Positions 3,829 through 26,293 are shown, counted from the stretch's first letter. The stretch: 64,000 nucleotides of DNA from an uncultured Verrucomicrobiota bacterium (GCA_938003985.1 CALKWZ010000073.1:6295-70294), one strand, 5' to 3'. Numbers and translations are program-made. Notes: generated by a model not told the origin, from the letters alone.

Positions 3829-4400
3829 TCAGTTGAAAATCCCCTTTTTTGCCCGCCCAAGCCCGTTTGCGAGGCATTTTTTTTGGCGATTTATTGCCTC
3901 CGCAGGCCTCTCCGGACCCGCCAAGCGCCTGCCCAGCCCTAAAAACCCCCGATTAAGCAGGAAAACAGGAAACACACAGGAAAACAGGATCAAGCCCCCA
4001 TCCCTTCCTGTTTTCCTTCTAAAATTCCCCGTTTTCACGGGTTTAGGCCGATTTTCGGCCGTTTTCGTGGTTTGTGGCCCGTTTGGGACCTGTTTCGGGC
4101 CCGTTGCGAGCCATTTTCGGCCCTGAAAACGCCCTCCGCGGTCATTTTCGTCCGAAAAATGCCTCCCGAGAGCCTCCTTTTGCGAAGGAGGCATTGCGCG
4201 GCGCCCCGAAACCGGCATAAAGCCTCCTTCGCGCTCGGTTCACGCCCGCCCGCCCGCGCCCTATTCCCCAAGCCCGCAGCCCGTTGCGCCATTGACCCAC
4301 CCCCGCCTTTCCGCTATCCTTTTGCCACTCAGGAAGATTCACCCCGCCACGTAAAACCTCCTTGAAGGAGGGTGAATAAAACGGTTCTGCAAAAGGAAAT
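3829..4400. promoter_or_regulatory. Long repeat-rich noncoding leader (570 bp) upstream of the low-GC cassette
   Basis: No credible ORF. Direct repeats CAGGAAAACAGGA occur at 3958-3970 and 3977-3989. At least six (A/G)TTTTCG(G/T) motifs flanked by CC/GG lie between 4029 and 4153. Perfect 8-bp hairpin GCCTCCTT-ttgcg-AAGGAGGC at 4172-4192 and a 5-bp hairpin CCTCC-ttgaa-GGAGG at 4357-4371. Half-site CCACGTAAAA at 4347-4356. SD AAGGA lies 6 nt before the ATG at 4401. Confidence 0.4.
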
Positions 4401-4787
4401 ATGAAAAGCAACTTAATGATAGCACTCGGCGTAGTCGTTGTATTATCGCTTATGGGAGCAACGGTATTTATTGGTCTGCAATCCATGAGCGCTGCACATG
4501 CGGACATCCCCCCGCCGACAGTTAAGACCATTTCCGATTTTCGCTCCTGGCGCCCTACTTTTACCACTGCGCATCTCATTACTTTCGGCTGGTCTAGCAA
4601 CTACTACATTGACAATGACAATGCGCGATACAGCTCACGCGGGCCGCGCACATATGTTTTTAGTACATCGGGAAAATATCTTGAGACGTCGGACCTTACG
4701 GCCGATATGCGCAGCTTTGCATTTGCCGCCAGCAAAGGCGTAAACATTACTAGGGTTAATATTGACGATATACCAATACCGGAATGA
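4401..4787 (+). CDS. Hypothetical small secreted protein (low-GC islet, ORF-A)
   Basis: 128 aa with signal peptide MKSNLMIALGVVVVLSLMGATVFIGLQSMSAAHA and SD AAGGA upstream. Local GC is about 45% against about 70% background. No recognisable family. Confidence 0.55.
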   Translation: MKSNLMIALGVVVVLSLMGATVFIGLQSMSAAHADIPPPTVKTISDFRSWRPTFTTAHLITFGWSSNYYIDNDNARYSSRGPRTYVFSTSGKYLETSDLTADMRSFAFAASKGVNITRVNIDDIPIPE

Positions 4788-4798
4788 ATAATGCGCAG

Positions 4799-4862
4799 AA
4801 CAAGCGGGTCCAGGGTACCCGCCACAAGGTGTCGGATCCCCTGACCCGTGACGTTCGACGAA
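4799..4862 (+). repeat. 64-bp direct repeat, copy 1 (about 94% identical to 5491-5554)
   Basis: aacaagcgggtccagggtacccgccacaaggtgtcggatcccctgacccgtgacgttcgacgaa, located at the ORF-A/ORF-B junction. Imperfect internal dyad (cgggtccagggtaccc / ggatcccctgacccg). Confidence 0.85.
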
Positions 4863-4866
4863 TAAA

Positions 4867-5553
4867 ATGATTATGCGCACAATGGCACATCACCGATACG
4901 CGGCCATCATAGCTGGTGCATGCAACGCTATTATCGCCACTTCCGCCATGTCCGACGACATTCCTTGGATTACGCTTGAGAACATCAGCCTGAATCCAAC
5001 CAGCTTTTATGTGTCCATCAATGTAACCAATACCTGGTCACCATATTATTTCGCCCTGGAGGCATACGAAGGAGAACCTGTGGGGTCCACCGGCGGGGTT
5101 GAGCGAGCCATCGTATCCGATTGGGTGCAAGGAACGGGCTCGGCCTTGGTCTTGTATGACACCTCTGCCCCCTTGTCTCAATCAGGGCGTACATACAATG
5201 TCGCGGTCACTCCGGATATCGGAGGATTCTACATCCTTGGTCCAAACGAAATCTTTGCCCCTTATCCCTTCTTCAGATCGCCCGACATTTCTTCGATCAT
5301 CGTAACGCCAACAAATGCGGGCCAAGTCTTGGCCATCACATATGGCGAGGGCTTGTATACCAATACGGTCTATGTCTTGAGTGACGAAGCCTCGGGGTTC
5401 ATTCGAGTCAAGGGAACCAACAATATCCCGACAAATGCGGTCATCGAGCGCAGCACGGATCCCATTAGATGGGCCACAAAAAAAATGTCGAACAAGCGGG
5501 TCCAGGGTACCCTCCACAAGGTGTCGGGTCCCCTGACCCGTGACGTGCGATGA
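4867..5553 (+). CDS. Hypothetical secreted protein (low-GC islet, ORF-B); C-terminal 20 aa encoded by repeat copy 2
   Basis: 228 aa with signal-like N-terminus MIMRTMAHHRYAAIIAGACNAIIATSAMS and a beta-rich body. GC about 48%. Tail ...NKRVQGTLHKVSGPLTRDVR. The stop overlaps the next start as ATGA. Confidence 0.55.
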   Translation: MIMRTMAHHRYAAIIAGACNAIIATSAMSDDIPWITLENISLNPTSFYVSINVTNTWSPYYFALEAYEGEPVGSTGGVERAIVSDWVQGTGSALVLYDTSAPLSQSGRTYNVAVTPDIGGFYILGPNEIFAPYPFFRSPDISSIIVTPTNAGQVLAITYGEGLYTNTVYVLSDEASGFIRVKGTNNIPTNAVIERSTDPIRWATKKMSNKRVQGTLHKVSGPLTRDVR

Positions 5554-5554
5554 A
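5491..5554 (+). repeat. 64-bp direct repeat, copy 2
   Basis: aacaagcgggtccagggtaccctccacaaggtgtcgggtcccctgacccgtgacgtgcgatgaa has 4 mismatches to copy 1 and spans the ORF-B end and the ORF-C start. Confidence 0.85.
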
Positions 5555-5972
5555 GAACGACCGGAAACTGCTGCGAAAGGTTGGCGCGCTGGCCATCCTG
5601 CTGGGCGTTTATCCGGCGTTTGTTCTCGGCTACTCGTGGAGTTGCGTGCTGCGGTCGGATTTGCGCGGCGGCCGGCATGGCCCGCTCGATGCCTATCGCC
5701 ATGCTCTCGCCAGCGCGGTGGTGGCGTACACGTTGAACGAGTCGGCGGTTGACCTCATCACTGTCCTGTTTGAATCGAAGGGCAAGGACTCCAATCGCAT
5801 GGACGGCCACAACAACCGCATCGGGGCCCGCCTCGGCGCCCACGCCGATTCATTCCGCGACCTTGAACCCGCCGTGCGGCAACATGTTGGGAACGGCGCC
5901 GTCGCTGCGGTCGAACCGGATCAAATCACCTGGTTGCCGGAGAACAAATGGCGCGATGGTTGGATTTGGTGA
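5550..5972 (+). CDS. Hypothetical membrane-anchored protein (ORF-C)
   Basis: 140 aa with N-terminal TM (VGALAILLGVYPAFVLGY). The ATG is embedded in repeat copy 2. GC is intermediate (about 62%). No recognisable family. Confidence 0.45.
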   Translation: MKNDRKLLRKVGALAILLGVYPAFVLGYSWSCVLRSDLRGGRHGPLDAYRHALASAVVAYTLNESAVDLITVLFESKGKDSNRMDGHNNRIGARLGAHADSFRDLEPAVRQHVGNGAVAAVEPDQITWLPENKWRDGWIW

Positions 5973-6005
5973 CCGGTCCATGAAAATGCCATTCCCATAA
6001 TCGCC

Positions 6006-22216: not shown

Positions 22217-23056
22217 ATGCAGATCCGACTGACCTCCGGTACCGTTTTCCTCCTCGCCGCGCTCTTCGCCGCCGGCGCCGCCGCCCAGCAACGCATCGAA
22301 TTCCAGCGCCAGAAATTCGACCGTTCCCGGTTCGAGCGGGCCGGACAATCCGCCGAGCCGGCACCGGCGCCCGCCGCGCCGGCCGCCGAACCCGTCGGCA
22401 CGTGGCCCCCGCCGGTTGCCGCCGGGACTCCGGCCCCCATGGCCACGGAAACGCCCGCCCCGGCGCCGACGTCCGAATTCGGAACCCCGGCGCCGGCATC
22501 CGAGTTCGGCGCCCCGGCCGCGCCGGCCGCCGGCGCCGCTCCCGGCGGCGCGTTCCCAGCCGGCCCGCCGCCGTCCTATCCCGCCGGCGCCACGCCCGAG
22601 GAACGGGCCGCCATCGACGCGCCGCTGTTCGACCAAGTGCCCAGCAAATGGTTCAACAACGCCAAGGACTACCCCGAACTGCGCGAACTGCAGAAAAAAA
22701 CCGGCGCCTGCATGCTCGTCTATTTCAAGAATCCGTCCGTGCCCAACGAAAAGGGCCTGTGCAGCTGGTTCGAGAAAAGCATCACCACCGACATCGACTG
22801 GCGCAAGGCGATGAAGTACTTCATCAAACTGGAGATCACCCTGCCCGGGCCTTCCGCGGTGCGGGATTTGGTCGACCAGTTCCGGGTGATGCGCACGCCG
22901 TCCATCTTCGTGGTCAAACCCGGCGAGACGATGCCGTTTCGCCTGATGGTGTTCGAGTATCCCGAAGGCGGCGGCCGGCCCAAGCCCGTCGAAGTGCCGG
23001 TCGTGCTCGAGGCGCTCAAGGGGCGCTGCACGCCGGCCTACCAGACGCTCTTCTAG
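22217..23056 (+). CDS. Hypothetical secreted protein, Pro/Ala-rich linker plus thioredoxin-like C-terminal region
   Basis: Signal peptide MQIRLTSGTVFLLAALFAAGAAAQ with AGGA SD. PAPAPAAPAAEP low-complexity linker. C-terminal about 140 aa is globular. Confidence 0.6.
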   Translation: MQIRLTSGTVFLLAALFAAGAAAQQRIEFQRQKFDRSRFERAGQSAEPAPAPAAPAAEPVGTWPPPVAAGTPAPMATETPAPAPTSEFGTPAPASEFGAPAAPAAGAAPGGAFPAGPPPSYPAGATPEERAAIDAPLFDQVPSKWFNNAKDYPELRELQKKTGACMLVYFKNPSVPNEKGLCSWFEKSITTDIDWRKAMKYFIKLEITLPGPSAVRDLVDQFRVMRTPSIFVVKPGETMPFRLMVFEYPEGGGRPKPVEVPVVLEALKGRCTPAYQTLF

Positions 23057-23061
23057 GCCGC

Positions 23062-24027
23062 ATGGGCGGCGCCGTCCAGTTCCGGGCCATCGCCCGCCTC
23101 GCCGCGCTCGAGGCCATCCGCCGGCCCGTCTTCCTGCTCGTCAGCCTGTCCGTGCTCGTCGGCATCGTCGCGCTGCCGCTGCTGCTCAACTACACCCTGG
23201 GCGATTCCGCCCGCATGGTACGCGACAGCGCCCTCGCGCTCTATTTCGCCGGCGGCCTGCTGCTGGCCGCCCATGCCGCCGGCGAGGCGCTTGCGCGCGA
23301 ACTGCGCCGCGGCACCGCCGCCGCCGTGCTGGCCAAGCCCGTTTCGCGCGCCACGTTTTTCCTCGCCAAGACCGCCGGCGTCGCCGGCGCGCTGTTCCTG
23401 TATTCCCTCGCCGCCTGGGCCGCCGCGCTGCTGGCCGCGCGCGCCGGCGCCGACGACCTGCGGCTCGACTGGGCCGCCGAGGGCCCCGCGCTGCTGGCCG
23501 TGACGCTCGCGCCGGCCGTCGCCGGCGCCTGGAACCACCGCACCGGCCGGCCGTTCGCCTCCGCGGCGTTCTTCCTGCTGCTGGCGTTCCTGCTCGCCGC
23601 GCTGGCCGTCGCCGCGTTCTTCCCGACGCCCCTCGAACGCCTCGCGTTTCCGGCCAACTTCGCCTGGCCGCTGCTCGGCGTCGGCCTGCTGCTGTACTTC
23701 GCCCTCGGCATGGCCGTCGCGCTGGCCGCCGCGCTGGCCACGCGCCTGCCGGTCACGCCCGTGCTGCTGCTCTGCGCGGGGCTGTTCCTGTTCGGCCTGA
23801 TGGCCGACTACTTCCTCGGCCCGCACCTGGCCGATTCCTGCGCCGCGCGCGCCGCCTACGCCCTCCTGCCCAACGTCCAGGCCTTCTGGCTGCTCGACGC
23901 CCTCGACGGCGGCGCGCACGTCCCGGCCGACTACCTCGCCGCGGCCGCCGCCTACGCCGCCGCCTGGGCCGCCGCCGCCCTCGCCCTCGGCTGCGCGTCT
24001 TTCCGCCGCCTGGAGATCGCCGGATGA
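23062..24027 (+). CDS. ABC-2 type transporter permease
   Basis: 321 aa with six hydrophobic segments, directly upstream of an ABC ATPase gene. Confidence 0.7.
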   Translation: MGGAVQFRAIARLAALEAIRRPVFLLVSLSVLVGIVALPLLLNYTLGDSARMVRDSALALYFAGGLLLAAHAAGEALARELRRGTAAAVLAKPVSRATFFLAKTAGVAGALFLYSLAAWAAALLAARAGADDLRLDWAAEGPALLAVTLAPAVAGAWNHRTGRPFASAAFFLLLAFLLAALAVAAFFPTPLERLAFPANFAWPLLGVGLLLYFALGMAVALAAALATRLPVTPVLLLCAGLFLFGLMADYFLGPHLADSCAARAAYALLPNVQAFWLLDALDGGAHVPADYLAAAAAYAAAWAAAALALGCASFRRLEIAG

Positions 24028-24030
24028 GCC

Positions 24031-24144
24031 TTTTTACGTGCTACGTAAATCCCGCCGAACGTTTTTACGTACTACGTAAAACCCGACCCAAAGTTTTTAC
24101 GTTCTACGTAAAATTTCCCCAAAGTTTTTACGTTCCACGTAAAA
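24031..24144. repeat. Array of four tandem 8-3-8 palindromes TTTTACGT-N3-ACGTAAAA (about 31-bp period)
   Basis: Copies at 24031-24049, 24062-24081, 24094-24113 and 24125-24144 are each perfect inverted repeats, AT-rich in a 70% GC genome. They lie between the permease stop and the ATPase start. Confidence 0.9.
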
Positions 24145-24158
24145 TCCGCTAAAACCCT

Positions 24159-25082
24159 TTGCGTGCCATGGAAAACCCGCCCGCCATCCAAGCGACCGAC
24201 CTCCGGAAAACGTTCCGCGACTTCTGGCGCCGGCCGCGCGTCGAAGCCGTCCGCGGCATTTCCTTCGCCGTGCCCGCCGGCCAGGTCTTCGGGCTGCTGG
24301 GCCCCAACGGCTCCGGCAAATCCACCACCATCAAGATGATCCTCGGCCTGCTGTTCCCCACGGCCGGCCGGCTGGACGTCCTCGGCGACGCGCCGCGGGC
24401 CGTGGCCGTCAAGAGCCGCATCGGCTACCTGCCCGAGGAATCCTATCTCTATCCCCACCTCACGCCGGCCGAAACCCTGGCGTTCTACGCCCGGCTGTTC
24501 CGCCTGCCGCGCGCCGTCGCGCGCGACCGCATCGAGCAACTGCTCGAGATGATCGGCCTGGCCCACGCGCGCAACCGCCCCGTCGGCGAATTCTCCAAGG
24601 GCATGGCCCGCCGCATCGGCCTCGCCCAGGCCCTGCTCAACGATCCGGACCTGGTCATCCTCGACGAACCCACCGCCGGCCTCGACCCGCAGGGCACGCG
24701 CCAGGTCAAGGACCTGATCCTCGCCCTCGCCGCGCGCGGCAAGACCGTGCTGCTGACGTCGCACCTGCTGGCCGACGTCGAGGACGTCTGCGCGCAGGTG
24801 GCCATCCTCTTCAACGGCCGGCTCCTCGCGCAGGGCACGCTCGATGCGCTCCTCGCGCAGAAGGACAAGACCACGCTGACGTTCCCGACTCCGGCCGATC
24901 CGGCCACGCTGCGCCAGGTGCTCGCCGCCGCGCGCGCCGCGCTCGGCGCCGACCCGGACGTCGACCATCCGCGCCAGGCCCTCGAACCTTTTTTCCTGCA
25001 CGTCGTGGCAACCGCCGCGCGCGACGGCGCCGCTTCGGGCGCGGTCCCCGCCGCCCCGCTGGCGCCGTTTCTCCAGAAATAG
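24159..25082 (+). CDS. ABC transporter ATP-binding protein (ABC-2 family)
   Basis: Walker A GLLGPNGSGKSTT, signature-like FSKGMARRIGLAQAL, Walker B LVILDEPTAGLD. The start is either TTG at 24159 or ATG at 24168. Confidence 0.85.
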   Translation: MRAMENPPAIQATDLRKTFRDFWRRPRVEAVRGISFAVPAGQVFGLLGPNGSGKSTTIKMILGLLFPTAGRLDVLGDAPRAVAVKSRIGYLPEESYLYPHLTPAETLAFYARLFRLPRAVARDRIEQLLEMIGLAHARNRPVGEFSKGMARRIGLAQALLNDPDLVILDEPTAGLDPQGTRQVKDLILALAARGKTVLLTSHLLADVEDVCAQVAILFNGRLLAQGTLDALLAQKDKTTLTFPTPADPATLRQVLAAARAALGADPDVDHPRQALEPFFLHVVATAARDGAASGAVPAAPLAPFLQK

Positions 25083-26246: not shown

Positions 26247-26265
26247 GGTTCCCCCGCCCCCTCCG

Positions 26266-26293
26266 CCCGCCGGGTTTTCCCGGCGGGTTTTTT
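26266..26293 (+). terminator. Rho-independent terminator of ilvC
   Basis: CCCGCCGGG-tttt-CCCGGCGGG followed by TTTTTT. Confidence 0.65.

Follow-up and report, generated by a model that had tools for sequence, protein, structure and literature searches.

The four phased, AT-rich palindromes that lie between the permease and ATPase genes of an ABC-2-type transporter are likely to be one copy of a dispersed, lineage-specific tandem palindromic repeat, inserted in the stop/start junction of the two genes and bridged by a small open reading frame (ORF), rather than a site for a regulator. The array is probably a tolerated repeat, either selfish or structurally maintained. Slippage during replication or unequal exchange most likely accounts for the gain and loss of its units, and its local effect is most likely neutral to mild. 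The locus is part of a 64,000-nucleotide stretch of DNA (68% GC) from an uncultured Verrucomicrobiota bacterium, which we refer to as the window.

The motif TTTACGT-N3-ACGTAAA occurs without mismatches at 24033-24049, 24064-24080, 24096-24112, and 24127-24143, with spacings of 31, 32, and 31 bp. When up to two mismatches were allowed, the 64-kb window contained four matches compared to 0.04 expected, and none of 100 shuffled sequences reached four. The array and its 31-32 bp period, first described in a sequence-only reading of this DNA, are thus real. Tandem Repeats Finder reported 24031-24149 as a repeat of period 31 with 3.8 copies and a score of 152, far above any other in the window. The perfect 8-3-8 symmetry originally ascribed to all four units holds for units 2 to 4; unit 1, whose right arm is ACGTAAAT, is a 7-3-7 palindrome. 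The features of the junction are:

23062-24027, plus strand: ABC-2-type permease gene, 321 aa; its stop codon, TGA 24025-24027, overlaps the ancestral ATG
24024-24152, plus strand: bridging ORF, 42 codons plus TAA, which crosses all four units in the ATPase frame
24031-24050, plus strand: repeat unit 1, TTTTTACGT-GCT-ACGTAAAT, a 7-3-7 palindrome with the outermost pair lost
24062-24081, plus strand: repeat unit 2, TTTTTACGT-ACT-ACGTAAAA, 31 bp past unit 1
24094-24113, plus strand: repeat unit 3, TTTTTACGT-TCT-ACGTAAAA, 32 bp past unit 2, with an AAAG tag at 24090-24093
24125-24144, plus strand: repeat unit 4, TTTTTACGT-TCC-ACGTAAAA, 31 bp past unit 3 and preceded by AAAG
about 24158-24175, plus strand: fifth, degenerate hybrid unit, TTTGCGT-GCC-ATGGAAAA, in phase, 31 bp past unit 4
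24168-25082, plus strand: ABC transporter ATP-binding protein gene, 304 aa

The upstream gene is a weak match to ABC-2 permeases and the downstream gene encodes an ABC ATPase. The permease stop at 24027 had been placed correctly. The ATPase start, previously assigned to TTG 24159, moves to ATG 24168, where a 304-aa database protein that is 100% identical over its full length, as well as all orthologs, begin. This ATG lies within the fifth unit, which reads TTTGCGTGCCATGGAAA (24158-24174). The right arm of that unit belongs to a sister type of the repeat (CCAC/CCATGG; compare the units TTTTCCACGCCATGGAAAA in ortholog L100 and TTTTACGTTCCATGGAAAA in ortholog L225), and it supplies both ATG 24168 and the first codons of the protein. 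The terminal half-unit of the window, CCATGGAAAA, is of sister type and now codes for the residues M-E-N of the ATPase.

From mgtE to ilvC, the genes seem to form a single tight transcription unit. At 26265-26288, after ilvC, is a canonical G+C-rich intrinsic terminator with a T tract, indicating that the organism uses ordinary terminators. Upstream of the permease, a 27-bp tandem repeat (2.3 copies, 22458-22518) falls in the Pro/Ala-rich part of a hypothetical secreted protein.

We next describe the family to which the array belongs. From each of 185,579 species, we scanned one genome for pairs of units separated by 10-18 nt. The pattern was present at no fewer than 92 loci, and the matches listed all came from six MAGs that bear the label Kiritimatiellia, Verrucomicrobia, or Spartobacteria. 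Abundance of the motif across the genome was part of what the sequence-only reading had said would count against its proposal, and in these relatives the motif is abundant genome-wide. Among the matches listed, each carrier MAG contains at least about 20 loci, except the two least represented; per MAG this amounts to at least about 20 arrays and at least 50 units, with a palindrome of 19-20 bp. We scanned viral contigs for the same two-unit pattern and none carried it, and we rejected a phage origin on these grounds. A full-text literature search found no published description of the repeat. The family, with at least one sister family, appears to be undescribed in Kiritimatiellia.

Our census of 97 arrays consists of the loci listed plus the window. 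Among these matches, arrays of two, three, four, and five units number 25, 56, 10, and 3, respectively, so that the mode is three. Of the spacings between units, 143 are 31 bp, 15 are 32 bp, and 19 are 22 bp. The family unit can be written as AAAGTT-TTTACGT-NCN-ACGTAAAA followed by a GC-rich linker (about 7 nt), at a period of 31 bp, and its AT-rich hairpin form as TTTTACGT-N3-ACGTAAAA. The units are asymmetric: AAAGTT is conserved on one side and the middle base of the loop is C in 88% of oriented units, while conservation of the linker is poor. Hybrids with the other half-site (TTTTCCAyG / CrTGGAAAA) are frequent among end units, as at 24158-24175. We rejected a CRISPR array, in which unique spacers about as long as the 23-55 bp repeats lie between them, as the linkers here are 3 or 11-12 nt long and the conserved tag makes up part of each.

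Among the matches listed, the 22-bp spacing is confined to one DAOTNL locus (L001) and to MAG JBFXHR, where it is part of a fixed three-unit composite. The composite spans about 70 bp with spacings of 31 and 22 bp, its first unit carries ACGTACA, and at least 17 copies are present among the labelled JBFXHR01 loci (L005, L013-L015, L019, L020, L034, L038, L042, L046, L050, L054, L061-L063, and L066). It looks as though this composite was copied whole, not grown unit by unit.

To place the arrays relative to genes, we called genes in the MAG loci using a simple codon-position GC (GC3) likelihood caller, which reproduces the known genes of the window; some of its starts and stops may be wrong. 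None of 94 arrays with at least two units lies inside a credible gene. The caller put the arrays at L031 and L078 within called genes, and we took these two calls as unreliable, given their implausibly long gene-to-array distances. Arrays lie between co-directional genes in 52 cases, between convergent genes in 28, and between divergent genes in one, compared to 374, 72, and 58, respectively, for the background of the same loci. Divergent contexts are therefore depleted (P=5.8e-4) and convergent contexts enriched (P=3.9e-6). Between co-directional genes, arrays are a median of 16.5 nt from the upstream stop and 67 nt from the next start. At 21 of the 28 convergent pairs, at most 25 nt are free on each side of the array. 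Unit orientation follows transcription (38:9, P=2.5e-5) and has no significant link to local GC skew (P=0.48); on the latter result we rejected a replication-strand bias.

The neighboring genes are functionally unrelated. They include lspA-miaA, GDP-mannose dehydratase, an ABC-2 permease, polysaccharide deacetylase, recN, and a lipid A acyltransferase with a HAD hydrolase; at the HAD-hydrolase locus, the array has two, three, three, and four units in four MAGs. All-against-all BLASTP of the flanking proteins revealed no gene family that recurs beside arrays within a genome, only ortholog groups with one member per genome.

These data bear on the proposal, made from the sequence-only reading, that the ABC transporter is controlled by a dimeric transcription factor, bound cooperatively to the four palindromes on one face of the helix. 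Palindromic sites with conserved arms and free central bases, spaced at 31-32 bp or about three helical turns, have the form of such an operator. However, the same arrays occur at 92 or more loci beside unrelated genes, mostly downstream of genes, with more than a third of the 81 classified arrays between convergent stops and a single array in a divergent, promoter-only region. This placement is the opposite of what is expected of operator arrays. At the locus itself, the array sits inside an operon, at a junction that was ancestrally an ATGA overlap, and has no promoter-like site in or near it; a consensus scan of the array detected neither a sigma-70-like promoter nor an intrinsic terminator with a U tract. 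The distribution largely refutes the operator reading, and we consider a locus-specific operator scarcely tenable.

A regulator shared with a second site in the window had also been suggested, from a half-site near 4350. The half-site ACGTAAAA does exist at 4349-4356. It is solitary and lacks a partner arm, its surroundings are low in GC (53%), and one such 8-mer compares to 0.33 expected by chance. We therefore discarded the shared regulator. Short tandem repeats are present nearby at 3958-4105 (CAGGAAAA in 3.6 copies, the 11-mer TTTCGGCCGAT, and the 11-mer GTTTGGGACCC), upstream of the 53-57% GC stretch at 4001-6000, which is possibly acquired DNA.

The history of the junction can be read from orthologs of the ATPase, of which many close ones exist. 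The gene order MgtE/CorA, hypothetical protein, permease, ATPase is conserved among the ortholog contigs we fetched, and the permease-then-ATPase order, which had been called atypical, is conserved across the clade and uninformative. Two orthologs of 80-81% identity lack both array and spacer, and their stop and start codons overlap as ATGA (L101) or TGATG (L102). Judged from these sequences, the overlapping stop/start is the ancestral, translationally coupled state. Among orthologs of 89-96% identity, which carry ACGT-type arrays, the number of units is two (L227/228 and L225/226), three (L093/094), or four (L095, which is UBA2281, and the window). L227 equals L093 minus one unit, and copy number thus changes on a short time scale.

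At the same junction, five orthologs of 81-87% identity (L097, L098, L100, L103, and L229) have two to five units built on another palindrome, TTTTCCA-N5-TGGAAAA. This sister palindrome shares the T/A tracts and the 31- and 22-bp spacings, and in L097 also the AACTTT/AAAGTT tag. We detected no sister motif within the window. The sister family is present on at least 120 metagenome contigs; among the matches listed, arrays contain 2-11 units and the spacing is 31 bp in 166 cases, 22 bp in 128, and 30 bp in 32. From these comparisons we infer that an older array at this junction may have been converted to the ACGT type, except for the half-unit that was already coding. Between the sister-type array and the ATPase start codon, and immediately before that codon, four orthologs contain a tandem heptamer, ATTCTTA/ATTCTTC, in 4-6 copies (L098, ~3950-3995; L097, ~3960-3995; L103, ~2965-2990; L229, ~1460-1495).

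The window and its orthologs have a small ORF that spans the array. In the window, its ATG overlaps the permease stop (ATGA), at the ancestral ATPase start, and the ORF ends 15 nt before ATG 24168. All array-bearing orthologs have an equivalent ORF of 21-74 codons that begins at the retained ATG and ends between -4 and +27 nt relative to the ATPase ATG:

window and L095: 42 codons, stop 15 nt before the ATPase ATG
L227 and L225: 21 codons, stop 15 nt before the ATPase ATG
L093: 28 codons, stop 25 nt before the ATPase ATG
L097: 44 codons, TGATG overlap with the ATPase start
L103: 53 codons, ATGA overlap with the ATPase start
L100: 74 codons, stop 6 nt before the ATPase ATG
L229: 58 codons, stop 3 nt before the ATPase ATG
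L098: 39 codons, stop 27 nt before the ATPase ATG

In UBA2281, a public gene call annotates the 42-codon bridging ORF (L095 3857-3985, DDWR01000023.1) as a 42-aa protein. Such small-ORF calls, together with misplaced downstream starts, are likely to be annotation artefacts wherever arrays occur.

Whether an array can be read through depends on phase. A forward unit contains a TAA stop in one of three frames, while a reversed unit leaves a single frame open and closes the other two. Since 31 is 1 modulo 3, the reading frame rotates from one unit to the next; the 32-bp step between units 2 and 3 keeps the ORF of the window in the two open frames and out of the TAA frame.

Similar bridges are present in operons elsewhere. 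Of 16 operon-internal arrays at other loci, eight are bridged, compared to two of 16 when the spacer was reverse-complemented. In those eight, the start codon is at -4 (ATGA or TTGA) and the ORF ends between -4 and +15 nt relative to the next start. The remaining eight contain no detectable bridging ORF, revealing that bridging is not universal. A test for any open frame across the array was too strict and was confounded by orientation, and we used a phase test in its place. At nine of nine independent loci with a -4 start codon, the frame set by this codon extends to the next gene (P=2e-4 compared to random phase), and at seven of the nine it is the sole frame that does so. Several bridges begin exactly with ATG followed by AAAGTT and read MKVFTFYVK...SFYVLRK...FLRST before the stop. 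For the sister family, five metagenome loci were usable and showed no clear bridges. Sister arms of the CCAC type are stop-free in every frame, and read-through ORFs therefore come easily there.

Several bridged arrays are flanked by ATGA at both ends (L016, ~947-1075; L049, the same locus in another MAG; L080; and L103, 2840-3004), and at the lspA-miaA junction the sequence is gcgccATGA...gcggcATGA. The paired ATGA could be the duplicated target site of an insertion, or could reflect selection for coupling at both ends.

These data suggest how the transporter genes could tolerate the array. The array would have inserted directly after the ATPase start codon, which overlapped the permease stop (ATGA), and the operon would still be transcribed as one mRNA. 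After finishing the permease, ribosomes may re-initiate at the old ATG and read through the weak A/U-rich hairpins; they would then stop 15 nt short of the new ATG, a codon donated by the last, hybrid repeat unit, and start once more from it. By this route, ATPase synthesis would stay coupled to the permease despite an insert of 140 nt, as has been proposed for MIRUs. As the gap is 15 nt and no obvious Shine-Dalgarno sequence precedes the ATPase ATG in the window, coupling at this junction may be weak.

The placement of the arrays also raises the possibility that, similar to classical REPs, they act as RNA. Where cistrons end in tandem A/U-rich hairpins, the hairpins would slow 3′-5′ exonucleases, cause transcription to pause or terminate (in both directions between convergent genes), or stall terminating ribosomes, and in this way determine how strongly neighboring genes are expressed relative to one another. 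REPs generally occupy the gaps between unidirectional or convergent ORFs, and they are believed to function as RNA (PMC3733652). Consistent with this possibility, the arrays are close to upstream stops, are oriented with transcription, and fill convergent intergenic regions where terminators are expected. The whole array, through pairing between units, also folds better than shuffled sequences (-40.7 compared to -26 kcal/mol, z = -4.2). However, single hairpins are weak, at -5.1 to -5.5 kcal/mol as RNA or DNA, and two of four ACGT-type units tested were no better than shuffles. There is no U-tract terminator pattern, while the canonical GC-rich terminator after ilvC lies nearby. We observed no compensatory variation within the family, and a sense-strand wobble test of the variable pair in the sister family gave no support for an RNA stem (C.A 44, U.G 28). 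Moreover, arrays that terminate transcription inside tight operons would be harmful. We regard action at the RNA level as possible but doubtful.

Thus, of the earlier suggestion of a REP-like element in a polycistronic mRNA, one part stands, in that the array is a dispersed extragenic palindromic repeat in an operon junction; the other part, that its hairpins set cistron stability, is unsupported, each hairpin contributing about -5 kcal/mol. An intrinsic (Rho-independent) terminator was rejected, as the stems have two G-C pairs at about -5 kcal/mol and no terminator-like site is present. Rfam returned only chance-level matches (E ≥ 0.69), far below gathering scores.

The arms of the repeat are far more constant than their surroundings. 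Over the four units of the window and of L095, a 91%-identical ortholog, arm positions are identical at 56 of 56 sites, while loops, linkers, and flanks are identical at 64 of 84 (76%) and third codon positions of the two flanking genes at 79-81%. Arms are therefore held by selection or homogenisation, and the rest drifts at about the neutral rate. Within the family, arm variants are single-sided rather than compensatory. Between the ACGT and CCA sister families, both arms changed together, while the T/A tracts, the tag, and the period were unchanged.

One explanation for such constancy is that the arrays are genome-wide binding platforms for a lineage-specific DNA-binding protein, such as a factor of the nucleoid or of chromosome organisation, or a recombinase belonging to the element, which would bind phased units cooperatively and keep the arms constant through selection for binding. 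The constant arms amid neutral drift, the single-sided variants, the joint switch of both arms, and the unsupportive wobble test all agree with such platforms, as do the preferred spacings of 22 and 31 bp, which approximate whole helical turns in both families. However, orientation tracks transcription and not GC skew, and a symmetric dimer on double-stranded DNA would have no need of such an orientation. We found no candidate protein, and simple tandem duplication of a 31-bp unit would equally yield a constant period. Although we consider binding platforms rather unlikely, they are compatible with a dispersed repeat at this junction as the best explanation of the locus and do not replace it.

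A more specific form of this idea is that the arrays are the visible half of an undescribed sequence-specific system, in which a lineage-specific protein recognises the phased palindromes, drives their spread and the concerted change of arms from CCA- to ACGT-type (with coding half-units frozen, as at ATG 24168), and perhaps acts at gene ends. We offer this as a speculation that is more probably wrong than right by a wide measure.

Mobilisation by a known system was also considered, namely that a REP-associated tyrosine transposase (RAYT) moves the units, which would then be canonical REPs. A tblastn search with E. coli RayT detected RAYT-like genes at three loci in these genomes (L055, L108, and L143), and the units are short palindromes in REP-like positions. 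The search for RAYT genes and REPtrons covered about 1.4 Mb of sequence. The L055 gene (2507-3109, minus strand) scores 75.8 bits with NF047646, just under the cutoff of 80. However, it is flanked by a different, GC-rich, GTAG-tagged REP (GTAGGGACGcCTCTCCGAGgCGTCC), with the AT-rich array 1.8 kb away, beyond recN. The conserved unpaired flank of the AT-rich unit is AAAGTT, not the GTAG/CGTC tag that defines REPs (PMC3733652), and GT[AG]G is found only in the stem or loop on the reverse strand. Further, the units are mostly direct tandem repeats rather than inverted REPIN pairs, and, as described above, no gene family recurs beside them within a genome. Mobilisation by a RAYT is very unlikely.

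The same MAGs carry a second, classical repeat family, the GC-rich, GTAG-tagged inverted pairs of GTAGGGACGcCTCTCCGAGgCGTCC, at L055 (2439-2510 and 2987-3056), L038 (7560-7584), L060 (5401-5425), and L073 (7102-7126); none is present in the window. The RAYT-like gene of L055 and its flanking GTAG repeats look like a REPtron.

The closest functional parallel to a bridged repeat comes from mycobacteria. As summarised in PMC12548453, small ORFs in MIRUs overlap or abut the flanking genes of operons, and downstream translation can stay coupled (Supply et al., 1997). To the extent that the summary describes them, MIRUs resemble our arrays in occupying tens of dispersed loci as short direct tandem arrays in operon intergenic regions, in varying in unit number between close relatives, in sitting at start codons or stop-start junctions, and in having a small ORF that abuts the flanking genes (here with the -4 nt ATGA spacing at L016, L038, L049, L080, and L103). 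The sequences are unrelated, the host phylum differs (Kiritimatiellia here), and our unit is an AT-rich palindrome of 31 (or 22) bp in a 68% GC genome. Because 31 is not a multiple of 3, successive units here are read in different frames, and an array remains open only at particular unit numbers and spacings (3 x 31 = 93; 31-32-31). Where arrays lie between convergent genes, as over a third do, bridging is impossible. Homology is implausible by composition (AT-rich compared to GC-rich MIRUs) and by host; the arrays work like MIRUs and are not members of that family.

REPs are short extragenic palindromes that follow coding regions and lie mostly where neighboring ORFs are unidirectional or convergent (PMC3733652), and our arrays share with the REP/BIME elements of Enterobacteria and Pseudomonas (the GTAG/CGTC super-families) both high copy number and this placement. 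Both also form composite clusters with hybrid or variant end units and are lineage specific, with sister families in related genomes. In contrast to REP/BIMEs, our units lack the GTAG/CGTC tag, are not the repeats that flank the RAYT-like gene, have AT-rich stems of about -5 kcal/mol, and form direct tandem arrays at a fixed period instead of alternating in orientation.

Two other systems share part of this architecture. The BOX elements of Streptococcus pneumoniae (boxA-boxB(n)-boxC) are likewise modular, dispersed intergenic elements with a variable number of short tandem middle units and distinct end modules; their sequence, unit size, and host are unrelated, and we know of no translation-bridging role described for them. 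Tandem NrdR boxes are 16-bp palindromes about 31-32 bp apart, centre to centre, and thus similarly spaced by about three helical turns. Unlike our arrays, which are downstream of genes at dozens of unrelated loci, operators of this type are in the promoters of a coherent regulon with few loci.

Our findings remove a false lead, as the AT-rich phased palindromes are not a regulator site for the transporter. They also indicate that gene callers will misplace starts at such junctions, as with TTG 24159 and the 42-aa "gene" of UBA2281. The family offers a clean case of genome-wide constancy, and of concerted change, in the arms of a repeat. Unit number (two, three, or four in near-identical strains) could, though improbably, act as a heritable dial on downstream translational coupling, since each 31-bp unit that is gained or lost shifts the bridging ORF by one frame. 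Variable unit number could also mark strains of Kiritimatiellia in wastewater and anaerobic digesters, where organisms similar to UBA2281 are present. To our knowledge, repeat-borne small ORFs that bridge operon junctions are known only from mycobacteria. By joining REP-like placement with MIRU-like, junction-bridging small ORFs, this family would provide a second, independent natural example of a repeat that invades an overlapping stop/start junction without breaking translational coupling.
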